Assembly (NCBI GenBank): GCA_027364655.1 | Contig: DAHXOX010000071.1 | Location: forward strand, 4,938-68,937 | Length of the DNA: 64,000 nt | Direction of reading: 5' to 3' | Source of the DNA: Paludibacter sp. | Lineage (GTDB): Bacteria > Bacteroidota > Bacteroidia > Bacteroidales > Paludibacteraceae | Shown here: positions 4,110 through 50,991 of the stretch, in pieces | Numbering within the stretch: position 1 is the stretch's first letter | How the letters are laid out: every line of letters starts with the position of its first letter | Notes under the pieces: generated by a model | Seen by the model: only the letters and a program-made list of their open reading frames with translations | What the model was told of the DNA's origin: nothing | Databases searched by the model: none | Program-made: the position numbers and the translations under genes

Positions 4110-5780
4110 ATGAAAAGTGATATAGAAATTGCACGTGCAGCTAACATGTTGCCCATACAAGAAATTGCAAGTCAACTCGAAGTAGATGCAGAGGACCTTG
4201 AATTCTATGGAAAATATAAAGCAAAACTCCCACTGCATTTAATAGATGAAGAAAAGATTCAAAAAGGAAAACTGATTTTAGTCACTGCTATTACGCCAAC
4301 ACCTGCCGGCGAAGGCAAAACTACTACGTCCATTAGTTTAGCAATGGGACTCAACAAAATTGGCAAGAAAGCCACTGTTGTTCTTCGCGAACCTTCTTTG
4401 GGGCCTGTGTTTGGAGTTAAAGGAGGCGCTGCTGGGGGAGGATTTGCCCAAGTCATTCCAATGGAAGATATTAATTTGCATTTTACAGGCGATTTATCAG
4501 CTATCGAAAAAGCAAACAATCTATTAGCAGCACTCATTGACAACACCTTACAAAACAAAAAACGAGGGCTTAACATTGATCCCAGAACCATCACATGGAA
4601 GCGGGTCATGGACATGAACGATCGTTCGTTGCGAAACACTGTCATTGGACTGGGTGGCATTGCCAATGGAATTCCACGCGAAACAGGCTTCAACATTACA
4701 GCCGCGAGCGAAGTGATGGCAATTCTATGTTTAGCAAAAGACTTGAGACATCTGCGTGAAATGTTAGGCAATATCTATATCGGACAAACGTATGAAGGAG
4801 AACCTGTATTTGCTCGTGATCTGAAAGCACAAGGAGCTATGGCGGTTTTATTGAAAGATGCCATTAAACCCAATCTGGTGCAAACCATTGAAAACACGCC
4901 GGCCATTATTCATGGTGGTCCTTTTGCCAATATTGCCCAAGGAACTAACAGTTTGATTGCCACAAAAATGGGGCTTTCACTGAGCGACATTGTGGTGACG
5001 GAAGCCGGTTTCGCTTCTGAACTTGGCGCCGAAAAATTCTTTGACATCAAAAGTCAATATGGCAATTTACGTCCAAATGCTGTAGTGATCGTCGCCACCA
5101 TCCGAGCACTGAAATATCACGGAGGAATTAATAAGAGTGGTTTTGCCACTCCCGATGTCGGTGCTGTGAAAAAAGGGTTAGCTAATCTGGAGAAACATAT
5201 TGAAAACATGAAACAGTTCGGGTTTTCTCCGGTGGTGTCACTTAACCGATTTTCAGCTGACAGTGAAGAAGAAATTGAGGTTGTTAAAGCACGATGCGCA
5301 GAACTTGAAGTGAGCATCGCAATCAACGAAGCATGGGAAAAGGGCGGAGAAGGCGCCATTGATTTGGCAGAAAAGGTATTAGCATCTATATCTAATTGCC
5401 CTTCATGCTTTAATCCGCTCTATGATCTTCAATGGGAAATTGAAAAAAAGATTGCCACTATTGCCACGCAGCTTTATGGCGCCAAGGCAGTAGAATATTC
5501 ACTAAAAGCACATAAAGACATTGAACTGATCAACAAATTAGGAATGGGACACTTAGCCATTTGTATGGCAAAGACGCAAAATTCACTTTCTGACAATCCG
5601 GATCTTCGTGGACGTCCCGAAGGATTTGTCTTGAATATTCGCGAAATTGAAATTGCATCGGGAGCAGGCTTTGTGATCCCAATTGCCGGTGCCATCATGC
5701 GAATGCCCGGACTCCCTGCCATTCCCGCAGCCGAAAATATTGACTTCGACGATGACGGAAATATCATGGGACTTTTTTGA
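4110..5780 (+). CDS. fhs: Formate--tetrahydrofolate ligase
   Basis: TPTPAGEGKTT P-loop, GVKGGAAGGG, HGGPFANIAQG, TEAGF and MRMPGLP motifs. Confidence 0.97.
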   Translation: MKSDIEIARAANMLPIQEIASQLEVDAEDLEFYGKYKAKLPLHLIDEEKIQKGKLILVTAITPTPAGEGKTTTSISLAMGLNKIGKKATVVLREPSLGPVFGVKGGAAGGGFAQVIPMEDINLHFTGDLSAIEKANNLLAALIDNTLQNKKRGLNIDPRTITWKRVMDMNDRSLRNTVIGLGGIANGIPRETGFNITAASEVMAILCLAKDLRHLREMLGNIYIGQTYEGEPVFARDLKAQGAMAVLLKDAIKPNLVQTIENTPAIIHGGPFANIAQGTNSLIATKMGLSLSDIVVTEAGFASELGAEKFFDIKSQYGNLRPNAVVIVATIRALKYHGGINKSGFATPDVGAVKKGLANLEKHIENMKQFGFSPVVSLNRFSADSEEEIEVVKARCAELEVSIAINEAWEKGGEGAIDLAEKVLASISNCPSCFNPLYDLQWEIEKKIATIATQLYGAKAVEYSLKAHKDIELINKLGMGHLAICMAKTQNSLSDNPDLRGRPEGFVLNIREIEIASGAGFVIPIAGAIMRMPGLPAIPAAENIDFDDDGNIMGLF

Positions 5781-5933
5781 CCCTTCAATACCACAGCCCC
5801 AAATTCAAGACTTCTCTGTATGTATCATTTTTTCAAATATTTATCTAAACATCTTCATATCTATAAGTTACCCATTTTTATCGATGGGGTTATGTTTGAA
5901 ATGTTTGAATAAAACTATTATTTAAACTTATAT

Positions 5934-5967
5934 ATGTTGCAACATTTAATGGCGTAACGTATATTTG
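5934..5967 (+). promoter_or_regulatory. Bacteroidetes sigma-A promoter with an overlapping palindrome
   Basis: TATATTTG (-7 box, TAnnTTTG) at 5960-5967. TTG about 19 nt upstream lies inside the perfect palindrome ATGTTGCAACAT (5934-5945). Confidence 0.6.
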
Positions 5968-5992
5968 TGGAAAATAATTCAAACAAAAAATT

Positions 5993-6610
5993 ATGGAAAC
6001 TAAAGCACTTTATCATGAACGACGTTCCGTCAACTATTTTGATGCAAACAAACCACTATCAAAAAGCACATTAGAAGAAATCATTAATTTGGCAGTGCTT
6101 GCTCCTTCCGCGTACAACTTGCAACCATGGCGCATCATAGCAGTCGAATCAAAGGAAGCCAAAGAAAAATTGAAAGCGCTTTCAAACAATCAACCAAAAA
6201 TAACAGAAGCTCCTATTACACTGATCATTGTAGGGAACAAAAGTGGATGGAACGAGTCAAATCCGGTATGGAAAGAGATGCTCCAAAGCGTAGGAAATAA
6301 CACGGACATGGTGGAAGGGGCAAAACAAGCAGCGGCATTTTTGTATGGCTCAAGTGAAGAACGTTCATTGAAATTTGCCGAAAGCAATGCCGGTTTATTG
6401 GCCATGTCAATTATGATTGCAGCCAAAGAACTGGGTGTGGATTCTCATCCGATGAGCGGCATCGATTTTGAAGGCATTCATAAAGCATTCACTCTAAAAC
6501 CAAATGAAACAGTCGTTATGACCATCGCTTTAGGTTATGTTGATCAGTCAAAAACGCTTTATCCCAGAAGACCAAGACGTGCTTTCAATGATATTACAAC
6601 TCTCGTATAA
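5993..6610 (+). CDS. Nitroreductase family protein
   Basis: RRSV..F, APSAYNLQPW, GVDSHPMSG and IALGY FMN-binding motifs. Confidence 0.92.
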   Translation: METKALYHERRSVNYFDANKPLSKSTLEEIINLAVLAPSAYNLQPWRIIAVESKEAKEKLKALSNNQPKITEAPITLIIVGNKSGWNESNPVWKEMLQSVGNNTDMVEGAKQAAAFLYGSSEERSLKFAESNAGLLAMSIMIAAKELGVDSHPMSGIDFEGIHKAFTLKPNETVVMTIALGYVDQSKTLYPRRPRRAFNDITTLV

Positions 6611-47530: not shown

Positions 47531-47565
47531 AGTGAAGCCCTCACGTAACGTGAAGGCTTCACTTT
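47531..47565 (+). terminator. pepC terminator
   Basis: AGTGAAGCC...GGCTTCACT stem followed by TT. Confidence 0.65.
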
Positions 47566-47578
47566 AATAAACACCGCC

Positions 47579-48658
47579 ATGGACAAAACGATTGCCTTCT
47601 TTGTACCAACATTCATTTACTTAGTAATCTTTGCATTAAATGCATTATTACCGGGACGCTGGGTAACGGGTTATGTCACGAAAGTAAATTCGTCAGAAAA
47701 AATGAGATACCACCTCAATGGTATTCTCATCTTCTTCGTCATGGTTATGCTATGGCTTTTATTAGGATGTTATCATATCATATCCTGCGATTGGCTCTAT
47801 CAATATCGTTGGTACGAATTGGCAGGCGCTTTTATTTTTGGCATCATGGTTAGTTTAGTCGTCGTTTTGCCCTACCCGCGTATCAGAAATTCATTTTGGT
47901 CTGATTTCTATTTGGGAAGAATAGAAAACTTACAACTGTTGGGTGGACGTATTGACGCAAAAATGTGGTTGTACTTAGCCGGAGCCATTCTATTAGAGCT
48001 GAATGTACTAAGCTTTGCCGCCCATCACTGGATATTGTATGGAATTCACGCTTCGCCTGGTATTTATCTCACAACCATATTGGTCACCTATTTTCTGATC
48101 GATTATCTGACCTTTGAAGAAGTACACCTCTACACATACGATTTATTCGCCGAACGGGTTGGATTCAAATTAGCATGGGGATGTCTTGTCTTTTATCCCT
48201 ATTTTTATGCAATCTCCCTGTGGTCAACGGTCGATCTACCAAATCCTCATACGACAACCTGGTTATTTGGCATTTATGCCCTTATCTTCTTTTTGGGCTG
48301 GAGCCTATCGCGTGGTGCCAACCTTCAAAAGTATTTCTTTAAAAAGGATCCCGAAAAATCTTTTCTGGGCATTGTGCCCAAAACCATCACCGATGGCAAT
48401 CGAACCTTGTTAGTAAATGGCTTTTGGGGAATTAGCCGGCACGTGAATTATTTAGGAGAGATACTCATGGGCACGGGCATCATCCTTTGCACAGGCTATC
48501 CAATGCTTATCTGGCCTTGGTTATATCCATTATATTATGTGGCGCTCTTATTCCCCCGTCAGAAAGACGATGACGTGCGATGTGAACTGAAATACGGCAC
48601 CTTATGGAACGAATACAAACAAAAAGTGCCTTACCGAATCATTCCTTATATCTATTGA
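47579..48658 (+). CDS. ERG4/ERG24-family (delta14/delta7/delta24 sterol reductase-like) integral membrane reductase
   Basis: Y.LNG near the N-terminus, FYLGR, YDLFAERVGFKLAWGCLVFYP, SRGANLQKYFFK, LLVNGFWGISRHVNYLGE, RQKDDD.RC.LKYG..WNEY...VPYRIIP; these are the hallmark blocks of ERG24/DHCR7/LBR-type reductases. Confidence 0.88.
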   Translation: MDKTIAFFVPTFIYLVIFALNALLPGRWVTGYVTKVNSSEKMRYHLNGILIFFVMVMLWLLLGCYHIISCDWLYQYRWYELAGAFIFGIMVSLVVVLPYPRIRNSFWSDFYLGRIENLQLLGGRIDAKMWLYLAGAILLELNVLSFAAHHWILYGIHASPGIYLTTILVTYFLIDYLTFEEVHLYTYDLFAERVGFKLAWGCLVFYPYFYAISLWSTVDLPNPHTTTWLFGIYALIFFLGWSLSRGANLQKYFFKKDPEKSFLGIVPKTITDGNRTLLVNGFWGISRHVNYLGEILMGTGIILCTGYPMLIWPWLYPLYYVALLFPRQKDDDVRCELKYGTLWNEYKQKVPYRIIPYIY

Positions 48659-48715
48659 TTTCAGCAAAAGAATTGAATATTTTGAAGAAAATTGCCGTCA
48701 TCAGACGTTATGAAC

Positions 48716-49879
48716 TCAATAATTAAAATCTTCCGGTTCGCCGTTTAGCAATCTTCCTTGAAGAATAATTTTTCGCATCATTTGAATAATATTATCTTCA
48801 TCGTAGGCTTTTTTGACTTTTCCCGCGCTTTCTTTAGATGACAAACCCAACTCATTAAACAGTCTATATTCCTCATAAACAACATCCAATGCTTCCGCAA
48901 TTTTAATGTTGTTGTATTTTTTAGCGGCAAATACAATGGCTTCGTTCCAGTTGAGATGCGATGGAAGATATATTTGTCTGTCAGCCGATGACAAAACATC
49001 TATAGCCACTTCAACATCTTCAGGGAAAGGAATTACGCTTTCTTTATTATACTGAACTTCAAACCCTTTAAAGAGTTGAATAAAATATTTATCCGATTCA
49101 AAGTATTTGGCAAATGCAATGAGTTCATCGCCCATTCCGATTAGTAAAGGCCTATGATCTTGGGTTTCAGATGGAGTAGGAAGTACGCCATTATTTTCAT
49201 GAACGAGTCTTAGATAAAAAGTTTCTTTTTGCTCTTTCGAATTGGATAAGTTAAGTAAGACTCCGGTACCCATTCGGCTATCATAAAATTCATACCAGGC
49301 AGGCATATCTGCCATATTTCCATGCTCATCCTTTTGAGTAAGCTCCTCGTAATCCTGCCACGACCCGAACATCGGCTCATCTATCGCTTTATCAAACTCA
49401 TTAGCCGTGAGAAGATATTCTTTCATAAACTCCTTTTCATGTGGCTCAATAGATGGAATAAACGGGCATGAAGTAATATGATTTTCCCAAAAATGAAAAT
49501 CATAACAAATATCAACTTCATCAATCTGTTTTTGACCAGCCCGCCAAAGCAATTGCAGGTTAAACAATTTCTTCTGTAGAATGGCATGTAACGCGTTTTC
49601 CGCTTTTTTATGAAAGATCAATTCATAGTCTTCCTTTTGACGGAGAATCTCATTGTAATATTCATACGATTTGGCTAATTCAACTTTTTTCCGTGCATAG
49701 CTTTCAATAAAATATTCAATATGTCTGCCATTGAATTGCTCAAAATAAGCTTTTGCATTTTCCGAGTTTCGCACATCGGCATAAAATGATTTTTCAAGTT
49801 CTTTGAAAAAAGCATCCTGCTCACCAAATTCTTTGGGCAAGCGACTTTTGTGAAACGTAAAACTTTCGAAATCAATCAT
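48716..49879 (-). CDS. Hypothetical protein (387 aa, acidic, soluble)
   Basis: Long open frame with protein-like composition; contains LQKKLFNLQLLWRA and MPAWYEFYDSRMGTG; no family recognised. Confidence 0.8.
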   Translation of the reverse strand: MIDFESFTFHKSRLPKEFGEQDAFFKELEKSFYADVRNSENAKAYFEQFNGRHIEYFIESYARKKVELAKSYEYYNEILRQKEDYELIFHKKAENALHAILQKKLFNLQLLWRAGQKQIDEVDICYDFHFWENHITSCPFIPSIEPHEKEFMKEYLLTANEFDKAIDEPMFGSWQDYEELTQKDEHGNMADMPAWYEFYDSRMGTGVLLNLSNSKEQKETFYLRLVHENNGVLPTPSETQDHRPLLIGMGDELIAFAKYFESDKYFIQLFKGFEVQYNKESVIPFPEDVEVAIDVLSSADRQIYLPSHLNWNEAIVFAAKKYNNIKIAEALDVVYEEYRLFNELGLSSKESAGKVKKAYDEDNIIQMMRKIILQGRLLNGEPEDFNY

Positions 49880-49938
49880 AGGACAAAACTGAATTACGGT
49901 AATAAAATACCCTGTTGTAGTACCCTTAAAATGCTAAA

Positions 49939-50736
49939 TCATAACCGATACATTTTCTTCGTGTTATCACCCATCAACGTAATCGCCATTTTGCGTGACA
50001 TCATCTTTTGCATAAGAAACGATGCTACACGATTGCCGCTTCCAATGATATAGGAAGGCCGCTTCCCCAATTTCTTGAAACATTCATTAGGTATCTCTTC
50101 CGGCAATTGCACTCTGGGAGCAAAGATACTTATTTTTTCGGGCAGTGTATTTTTGAAGTTGGGTGTAGCCGTAGCGCCTGCACAACAGGCAATGATATCT
50201 ACTCCATTGTTTTTCCACTCATACCATAAACTTTCGGCCAACACACGATTATAGGCTTTTGTTGCAGCATACATCGTAAAAAAACCGCTTCCCTGAAAAC
50301 CTGCCAACGATGCCATCAACACAATCGCGCCTCGTCCTTTGGCCAGCATCTTTCCGCCGAACGTATGAAGGAAATTCAAAGGAGAAAGCATATTCACCTG
50401 AGCCATCTGTTCATGGTACTCTACGGAATTTTCTATAAACGGACCAATATATGACAGCGCAGCATTATAGACCAACAAATTGATTTCCTTCCCATGCAGT
50501 GCTTCTTCTATTTGCTGTGTAGCATTGGCATTTGCCAAATCACAAGGAATACACGTTACCTCAACGTGATACCTGCTTTTCAACTTGTCGACCATTTGTT
50601 GCAACGGTTCAAGACGGCGTGCAATAAGCACCATATCCAATCCTTCAGTCGCCAAATAAGTTGCAAAGGCAGCTCCGATACCTTCCGAAGCTCCCGCCAC
50701 CATCGCTGTCTTACCATATTTCTGTTGTAGATTTAT
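49939..50736 (-). CDS. Short-chain dehydrogenase/reductase (17beta-HSD/3-ketoacyl-CoA reductase-like); start ambiguous
   Basis: AGASEGIG Rossmann motif, IARR (NADP-type), YNAA, catalytic YAATK. The conserved N-terminal INLQQKYGKTAMV lies upstream of the first in-frame ATG (50703). Confidence 0.85.
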   Translation of the reverse strand: MNLQQKYGKTAMVAGASEGIGAAFATYLATEGLDMVLIARRLEPLQQMVDKLKSRYHVEVTCIPCDLANANATQQIEEALHGKEINLLVYNAALSYIGPFIENSVEYHEQMAQVNMLSPLNFLHTFGGKMLAKGRGAIVLMASLAGFQGSGFFTMYAATKAYNRVLAESLWYEWKNNGVDIIACCAGATATPNFKNTLPEKISIFAPRVQLPEEIPNECFKKLGKRPSYIIGSGNRVASFLMQKMMSRKMAITLMGDNTKKMYRL

Positions 50737-50991
50737 TGATTTATCTTTTTGATATGATGACCATTACAATGTGTTGGAGCAATAATCGATCTTAGCATTA
50801 ACACAAAACCTACCCATTTTGAGAATCAAATTGGGCAGGGTTTTTACAAAAAACTCGTTGATGAATGAATGTGTATTATCTCTATGCAGATGCAAATATA
50901 GACATAAAATTCACATAATCGGGTTTCACACGTACATATCGCTTTTTTGCCAACATAAAACGCATTTTCAGTTACATATCAAGGCAAAAAA

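Follow-up and report, generated by a model that had tools for sequence, protein, structure and literature searches.

A membrane reductase of the ERG4/ERG24 family and a short-chain dehydrogenase/reductase as a conserved gene pair of Bacteroidota, with a sterol-like lipid as candidate substrate

Can genes that recall sterol and steroid enzymes, standing close together in a free-living environmental bacterium, be read as working together, and if so, on which kind of lipid? The question is raised by a locus in a 64,000-nucleotide (nt) stretch of Paludibacter sp. DNA (contig DAHXOX010000071.1, assembly GCA_027364655.1), hereafter the window, where a membrane reductase of the sterol reductase family ERG4/ERG24, a 387-amino-acid (aa) protein and a short-chain dehydrogenase/reductase (SDR) are encoded between positions 47579 and 50736. 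A preliminary description of this DNA had seen in the three genes a possible steroid-transforming island. Here we describe the locus as it appears in related genomes, from which the reductase and the SDR emerge, almost certainly, as functional partners, and we discuss their substrate, which might be a sterol-like lipid of eukaryotic origin.

The reductase and the SDR in other genomes

A homologue scan with one genome per species recovered at least 578 stretches carrying a relative of the reductase, and the best 80 of these, whose reductases are 64-90% identical to that of the window, were taken for the comparison of loci. Nearly all of them are metagenome-assembled genomes (MAGs) of Bacteroidota from fens, peat, soil, lakes and activated sludge (taxon names are those of the deposited records), the closest relative among the 80 being that of a Paludibacter sp. 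MAG (locus L002, 90% identity). At 74 of the loci, considered informative, at least 900 nt are present downstream of the reductase, and in 69 of these 74 an orthologue of the SDR (52-89% identical) lies directly downstream on the opposite strand, i.e., the two genes are convergent. The median gap between them is about 30 nt; the values lie between -11 and 323 nt, apart from three loci where the gap is larger. Clustering of the flanking open reading frames (ORFs) of all 80 loci revealed nothing else that is conserved, the next commonest neighbour being present in 11 of them, and the two-gene pair is met in many differing genomic contexts. The neighbourhood analysis proposed in the preliminary description has thus shown both genes to be linked in other genomes.

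Among 400 evenly drawn genomes of the phylum the reductase was found in only one further genome, of the same genus (G231), in which reductase and SDR are located on separate contigs and both have been retained. The reductases without an adjacent SDR (L021, L039, L042 and L043) are flanked by unrelated genes plus one IS110 transposase, and no sterol cluster was found around them; at L043 the transposase (5240-6205) stands in place of the SDR. Two short contigs binned as "Candidatus Gracilibacteria" (L029) and "Luminiphilus" (L059) also carry the pair; their reductases nest within Bacteroidota clades, and they are probably mis-binned Bacteroidota contigs. The tree of the reductases roughly tracks taxonomy, with some groups misplaced, and does not separate vertical descent with loss from transfer.

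A different version of the pair is present on a gammaproteobacterial contig (L108), whose reductase is 51% identical to that of the window and shares with it the replacement of a proposed catalytic Tyr by Phe that is described below (Phe-type). The SDR beside it, the last of three in this cluster, stands head-to-tail with the reductase and overlaps it by 8 nt; this SDR is 40% identical to the window SDR over the full length and has the same two best NCBIfam matches. The order of genes in this contig (485-7133) is sulfotransferase, SDR, SDR, SRPBCC (Polyketide_cyc2), SDR, Phe-type reductase and Rieske/KshA_C oxygenase. Hence, the link between reductase and SDR holds in two arrangements and in two phyla, and in the gammaproteobacterial one the accessory genes are of steroid type.

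The preliminary description had stated that the functional link rests on proximity only. Adjacency throughout the phylum, co-occurrence and the overlapping, translationally coupled version in a gammaproteobacterium now add to proximity, and we regard the reductase and the SDR as a module of two enzymes that are inherited together. Being convergent, both genes would not be co-transcribed. In the literature on ERG24 and sterol reductases in Bacteroidota we found no paper on this pair; its convergent arrangement in Bacteroidota is new, as are the co-occurrence with EBP-like genes and the history of insertion that are presented in the following sections.

The two enzymes and the gene between them

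The reductase (47579..48658, forward strand) has 359 aa and was assigned through Pfam, PDB and alignment. It scores 152.9 bits against the Pfam profile PF01222 (ERG4_ERG24; cut-off 27), with residues 7-359 corresponding to profile positions 71-432. Among solved structures its best match is MaSR1, the delta(14)-sterol reductase of Methylotuvimicrobium alcaliphilum (PDB 4QUV; E 2.3e-36), whose residues 85-427 align with 18-359. Since the alignment begins that late, the protein lacks roughly the first 67 residues of MaSR1, its start corresponding to about MaSR1 residue 68-85. Some 7-8 hydrophobic stretches were counted in it by a crude hydropathy scan, the C-14 reductase type having ten transmembrane segments. 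With MaSR1 and with the eukaryotic ERG24/TM7SF2/LBR proteins, all members of PF01222, it has in common the whole C-terminal part and the motifs of the NADPH site. The latter (RGANxQK, SRHxNYxGE/D and R-x3-DD-x2-C-x2-KYG) are kept with respect to MaSR1, and the aligned positions R245-G-A-N248-x-Q-K251, S286-R-H-x-N-Y-x-G-E294 and R327...D330-D331..R334-C..K338-Y-G are invariant in the clade, the NADPH-binding C-terminal half being intact.

The situation is different at the proposed active site. In sterol C-14 reductases, MaSR1 Tyr241 and Asp363 have been proposed as catalytic residues (PMC12489058). In the window reductase they correspond to F172 and E294, and Phe and Glu occupy these positions in 81 of the 81 members of the clade, so that neither residue of the proposed Tyr/Asp pair is present. 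Two canonical ERG4/ERG24 paralogues of 454-461 aa from the same set of genomes keep the Tyr at the 241 position, and they also carry Glu. A further difference from MaSR1 is "HLYTYD" in the place of "TTWD". The 359-aa clade forms a monophyletic group in the tree, far removed from the canonical paralogues and also from MaSR1, from which a very long branch separates it; the host of the window enzyme makes no sterols. Further Phe-type relatives, with identities of 41-51%, are encoded by a gammaproteobacterial MAG, by the protist Rigifila ramosa (P0347) and by a eukaryotic contig (L109); for the last two the identity to the window protein is 43-46%. The presence of Phe-type proteins in protists indicates that the branch is not confined to bacteria.

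The SDR (49939..50736, reverse strand; 265 aa from the ancestral start) was placed in a subfamily resembling 7beta-hydroxysteroid dehydrogenase (7beta-HSDH) by Pfam, NCBIfam and PDB comparisons. The motifs AGASEGIG, IARR and YAATK, which the preliminary description had taken as the pattern of a 17beta-HSD3/12-KAR-like branch, are present in the translation, and the score against PF00106 (adh_short) is 129.6 bits. The features of a classical SDR are found: the Gly-rich AGASEGIG, the Ser-Tyr-x3-Lys residues in MASLAG...YAATK, and the basic IARR after strand beta-2. In SDRs an Arg-Arg in that place denotes the use of NADP(H), and the protein is predicted to be a soluble enzyme of NADP(H) type. 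The best NCBIfam match is 7beta-HSDH (NF050024), with 142.9 bits versus a cut-off of 300, and the second is a mycolate reductase, also below its cut-off. In the PDB, the only sequence below E 1e-20 is the NADPH-dependent 7beta-HSDH of Collinsella aerofaciens (5FYD/5GT9, E 4.8e-34), and 5FYD scores 45 bits above the next SDR. The alignment of both proteins begins at residue 1 (MNLxxKYG) and extends to about residue 236, including the Arg-Arg NADP site and the catalytic Ser, Tyr and Lys; they differ in that the window SDR does not reach the level of an equivalog, has about 30 extra C-terminal residues and has a membrane reductase as its partner. In the window's own genome, the SDRs closest to it reach only 26-30% identity. 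As the reductase does not carry the proposed catalytic Tyr of the C-14 reductase type and the SDR stays below the 7beta-HSDH cut-off, neither of them should be named after those enzymes.

The start of the SDR deserves separate consideration. Its first ATG is at 50703 (ORF 49939..50703), and the frame is open to 50736 and beyond. Homologues have 265-266 aa and start with MMNLQQKYGKTA or MNL..., i.e., at 50736-50734, where ATGATG is found in L002, ATAATG in L082, and ATA in the window. The span up to 50736 given in the preliminary description needs one correction, in that the codon there is ATA and not ATG, GTG or TTG. The same sequence with its ATA (50701-50766) recurs in contigs of separate studies, one on a sediment and one on a mine-drainage metagenome, and for this reason the ATA is taken as real rather than as an assembly slip. 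Initiation at the ATG at 50703 would drop 11 residues, including the start of strand beta-1 of the Rossmann fold; the 11 codons upstream of that internal ATG encode the same protein sequence as in L002. ATA is an accepted, though weak, start codon in translation table 11. In the window genome, the SDR must start either at this ATA or at the internal ATG.

The third gene (48716..49879, reverse strand), defined as an ORF and by comparison with relatives, lies in the tail-to-tail spacer of the pair (48659..49938), which, as the gaps at other loci indicate, has been enlarged by it. The preliminary description had suggested that it inserted between two genes that were originally neighbours, and this idea has been borne out. 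At L082, with a reductase 86% identical and the same synteny of pepC, mce and carboxyltransferase genes, the SDR and the reductase are separated by an empty gap of 29 nt, and besides the window the 387-aa gene is placed between the members of the pair in L002 and L085 only, both of which have an intact SDR ATG. Its family has 97 detectable homologues, those with a name being from Bacteroidales or other Bacteroidota, and in four other genomes the homologues are located in unrelated contexts with no conserved neighbour. The protein is acidic and cytoplasmic, with a predicted all-alpha fold. It has no match in Pfam, NCBIfam or the PDB sequences, and its AlphaFold (AF2) model, a confident one with a predicted local distance difference test score (pLDDT) of 86, found no similar fold in the PDB with Foldseek (best E-value 0.9). 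There is very little doubt that this gene is a later, lineage-specific insertion that stays outside the module, so that what had been called an island is really a module of two genes.

The spacer repeatedly takes up small cassettes, as in L049, in L070 and in L043 with its IS110 element. By reading of the sequence, a RelE/ParE-like toxin-antitoxin pair was named in the spacer of L049 (9105-9619), and an antitoxin-like gene with a lipoprotein gene in that of L070 (7309-8308).

Concerning the layout of the window locus, the three ORFs are located where the preliminary description had placed them, with the reductase converging on the 387-aa and SDR genes. After pepC, for which it had mentioned a terminator, a hairpin was found by reading the sequence (forward strand, 47532..47562, GTGAAGCC...GGCTTCAC followed by TTT), 16 nt before the start of the reductase; this hairpin is terminator-like, though its T run is only short, and is absent from the output of a consensus terminator scan. 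Scans for sigma-70 promoters, which did not cover Bacteroidota promoters, and for terminators gave no more sites than in shuffled sequence, and a search of RNA runs matched the window stretch in none. The view of a three-gene island was not supported: the 387-aa gene is unrelated to the pair, the GC content of the three genes (0.35-0.43) is like that of the flanks, no integrase or other mobility genes were found at the locus, and the three genes travel together only within one lineage. All three are real and under purifying selection: the ratio of non-synonymous to synonymous substitution rates (dN/dS) is 0.06-0.08 in the reductase, and the values for the SDR and the 387-aa gene are 0.10-0.14 and 0.13-0.19, respectively.

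Steroid-type company and the substrate of the pair

The host of the window shows no sign of sterol synthesis: in its genome (G000, 96.9% complete) neither a match to the triterpene cyclase profile PF13243 nor an EBP-like gene was found. In MAGs, a missing gene counts as soft evidence, and this applies also to the 73 of the 80 reductase-bearing genomes from which the cyclase is absent. The other 7 do have one (E <= 1e-46), with open frames of 737-765 aa in six of them and the seventh on a short contig. Compared with 0 in a background of 399 genomes this is a strong enrichment (Fisher p = 3e-6), though the cyclase genomes are phylogenetically clustered and the comparison sets MAGs against high-quality genomes. 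Six of the seven also encode a 165-aa EBP-like protein (G412, G422, G425, G432, G445 and G460, corresponding to loci L021, L039, L042, L054, L081 and L032). Within the five cyclase genomes checked for ERG4/ERG24 paralogues, the 359-aa type is the sole member of the family in G412, G422, G425 and G432, and G445 has a canonical paralogue besides it. The SDR is not beside the reductase at L021, L039 and L042, and is adjacent at L054 and L081. In G422 a single contig of 136 kb carries the reductase together with the cyclase and the EBP-like gene; no sterol genes were found in the neighbourhood of the cyclase, and the reductase is not clustered with it. These six MAGs are candidate sterol producers, in which the Phe-type reductase might serve biosynthesis.

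A second line of evidence comes from the sample of the phylum (401 genomes). The EBP/EXPERA family (PF05241) is the sterol delta8-delta7 isomerase family (PMC4263179), and it is represented in exactly two of the 401 genomes, G231 and G159. Outside the window genome, orthologues of the SDR are restricted to the same two (61% and 53% identity, respectively), an overlap whose probability by chance is about 4e-5 (3/401 x 2/400). G159, a closed Bacteroidia genome, has no reductase and no cyclase; at its locus (L089, 4607-7669; G159:C1, about 3390600-3393670) a sulfatase gene is followed by those of a 187-aa membrane protein of the EBP/EXPERA family and of the SDR, which overlap by ATGA, and in the SDR tree this SDR groups with those associated with the pair. 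It is possible that these genes constitute a second sterol-type module built around the same SDR. A substrate of steroid type is plausible, in view of the 7beta-HSDH that is the nearest characterized relative of the SDR and of the co-occurrence of the SDR with EBP-like genes.

The explanation that we favour overall, in a judgement that is evenly balanced, is that the pair tailors the ring system of a sterol-like lipid taken from eukaryotic material; as to the substrate itself, we incline slightly towards its being sterol-like. Both enzymes would share as substrate one membrane lipid whose ring system resembles that of sterols, and which the bacterium would not make but take up from plant, fungal or protist material, since no triterpene cyclase is present in a genome that is 97% complete. 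The SDR would interconvert a hydroxyl and a ketone of the ring, at C-3 or C-7 as candidate positions, and the membrane reductase would use NADPH to add a hydride to an adjacent C=C. The latter would probably be activated by conjugation to the carbonyl made by the SDR, as the Tyr that usually donates the proton is replaced by Phe in the whole clade. The sequence of events would then be to oxidize, to reduce the conjugated bond and to re-reduce, as in DHRSX/SRD5A3.

In that system, which converts polyprenol to dolichol, an SDR generates the carbonyl by which the C=C is activated, and afterwards reduces that carbonyl again (PMC11250103). The resemblance, limited to the proposed mechanism, consists in an SDR and a polytopic NADPH reductase that act on one membrane lipid, and it offers a way to work without the catalytic Tyr; SRD5A3, however, belongs to another Pfam family (steroid 5-alpha-reductase). 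A precedent for the use of foreign sterols is Stmp1 (CBU1206) of Coxiella burnetii, an ERG4/ERG24-family sterol reductase of a bacterium that does not produce sterols, thought to modify those derived from eukaryotes (PMC8787468). Unlike the type of host discussed here, which is free-living and environmental, Coxiella is an intracellular pathogen. To our knowledge, Stmp1 has no conserved SDR partner. The analogy with cholesterol-to-coprostanol conversion in the gut (IsmA-type 3beta-HSD plus reductases), on which the preliminary description had leaned, is a weak one: the logic of hydroxysteroid oxidation and C=C reduction would be common, but the pair is hosted by bacteria of fens, soil, sediment and sludge, and its reductase is a membrane enzyme of the ERG4/ERG24 family without the proposed catalytic Tyr.

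Several points weigh against the explanation that we favour. The genes are convergent and without a shared transcript, and in the window genome the SDR has lost its start codon. The proposed catalytic Tyr is missing throughout the reductase clade, and sterol-reductase signature 1 is degenerate as well. The SDR, far below the 7beta-HSDH cut-off, scores almost equally against mycolate reductase, an enzyme acting on beta-keto lipids. In addition, about 90% of the hosts have no cyclase, many of them being probably anaerobes from fens and sediments, and the enrichment in cyclases suffers from the phylogenetic clustering and the unequal quality of genomes already mentioned.

Part of these points leads to an alternative in which the Phe-type branch has left sterol chemistry and the target of saturation and reduction by the pair is a membrane lipid other than a sterol, such as a polyprenol-type or other isoprenoid alcohol, or a long-chain beta-keto or enoyl lipid. 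The missing Tyr, kept by the canonical paralogues, and the degenerate signature make a non-sterol substrate quite possible, and the lack of a cyclase in most hosts, the score against mycolate reductase, the action of an SDR and a membrane reductase on polyprenol in the DHRSX/SRD5A3 precedent (PMC11250103), and the Phe-type relatives in Rigifila and the eukaryotic contig go in the same direction. Nevertheless, a common endogenous lipid is disfavoured by the rarity of the pair in the phylum, and the co-occurrence with EBP-like genes and cyclases, the KshA-type Rieske oxygenase of the gammaproteobacterial cluster and the steroid substrate of the nearest solved SDR relative are not in line with a non-sterol role either; we consider this alternative the less likely one. 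A role as 3-ketosphinganine reductase in sphingolipid synthesis, or in that of sulfonolipids, was also considered and dropped, as the absence of the pair from nearly all of the 400 Bacteroidota genomes argues against the making of a widespread lipid of the phylum.

De novo sterol biosynthesis in the window organism, with a C-14-type reduction and the reduction of a 3-ketosteroid, could be suggested by the seven reductase-bearing genomes with a cyclase, six of them with an EBP-like gene and four with the 359-aa type as their only ERG4/ERG24 member. Yet, the absence of the cyclase from about 90% of the hosts, including the window genome, which has no EBP-like gene either, speaks for a function other than sterol synthesis; moreover, reductase and cyclase are not clustered, and in three of the seven cyclase genomes the SDR stands away from the reductase, although it is adjacent in two others. 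We consider this explanation very improbable. A decay of the module in the window genome, with an SDR that is translated poorly or not at all and partners split by the 387-aa insertion, would be compatible with the other readings and could be suggested by the change from ATG to ATA, recovered in two studies, with a next ATG that costs the first 11 residues of the Rossmann fold. It is unlikely in view of the fully open frame, the low dN/dS of the SDR, the conservation of the 11 upstream codons at the protein level, the acceptance of ATA as a weak start, and the two relatives that combine the insertion with an intact ATG. As for the three genes being unrelated neighbours brought together by chance, the convergent orientation without a shared transcript and the truly unrelated 387-aa gene would fit; but the pair persists at 69 of 74 loci while all flanking genes change, and recurs in another phylum in a different arrangement. 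Chance neighbourhood is already refuted for the reductase and the SDR, and for the three genes together it deserves practically no credit.

Consequences for the sterol reductase family

In bacteria, members of the sterol reductase family usually bear the annotation "delta14-sterol reductase" or "DUF1295" and are read as relics of sterol synthesis. The evidence described here draws attention to a large and coherent branch of that family, with more than 570 species in one scan, which is devoid of the proposed catalytic Tyr and is mostly found in hosts unable to cyclize squalene. This Phe-type branch is tied to one SDR subfamily and, statistically, to EBP-like genes. In its broadest form, which we consider rather doubtful, the proposal would be that a Phe-type reductase and a 7beta-HSDH-like SDR, sometimes with an EBP-like isomerase, constitute an undescribed toolkit for sterol remodelling, common to free-living bacteria of several phyla and to some protists, that would let sterol non-producers, including anaerobes such as the window organism, convert scavenged eukaryotic sterols (e.g., delta-7, delta-5,7 or 7-oxo) into usable forms by oxidation, conjugate reduction and re-reduction, without the need of a catalytic Tyr.

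If the substrate is an exogenous sterol, the pair would represent a widespread route by which environmental bacteria, including anaerobic ones, transform the sterols of eukaryotes, which would bear on the interpretation of sterol biomarkers in sediments and on the turnover of sterols in peat and soil. If, on the contrary, the substrate is a non-sterol lipid, a whole branch of a textbook sterol family would have some other function. In both cases, the reductase and the SDR constitute a compact and testable two-gene system.

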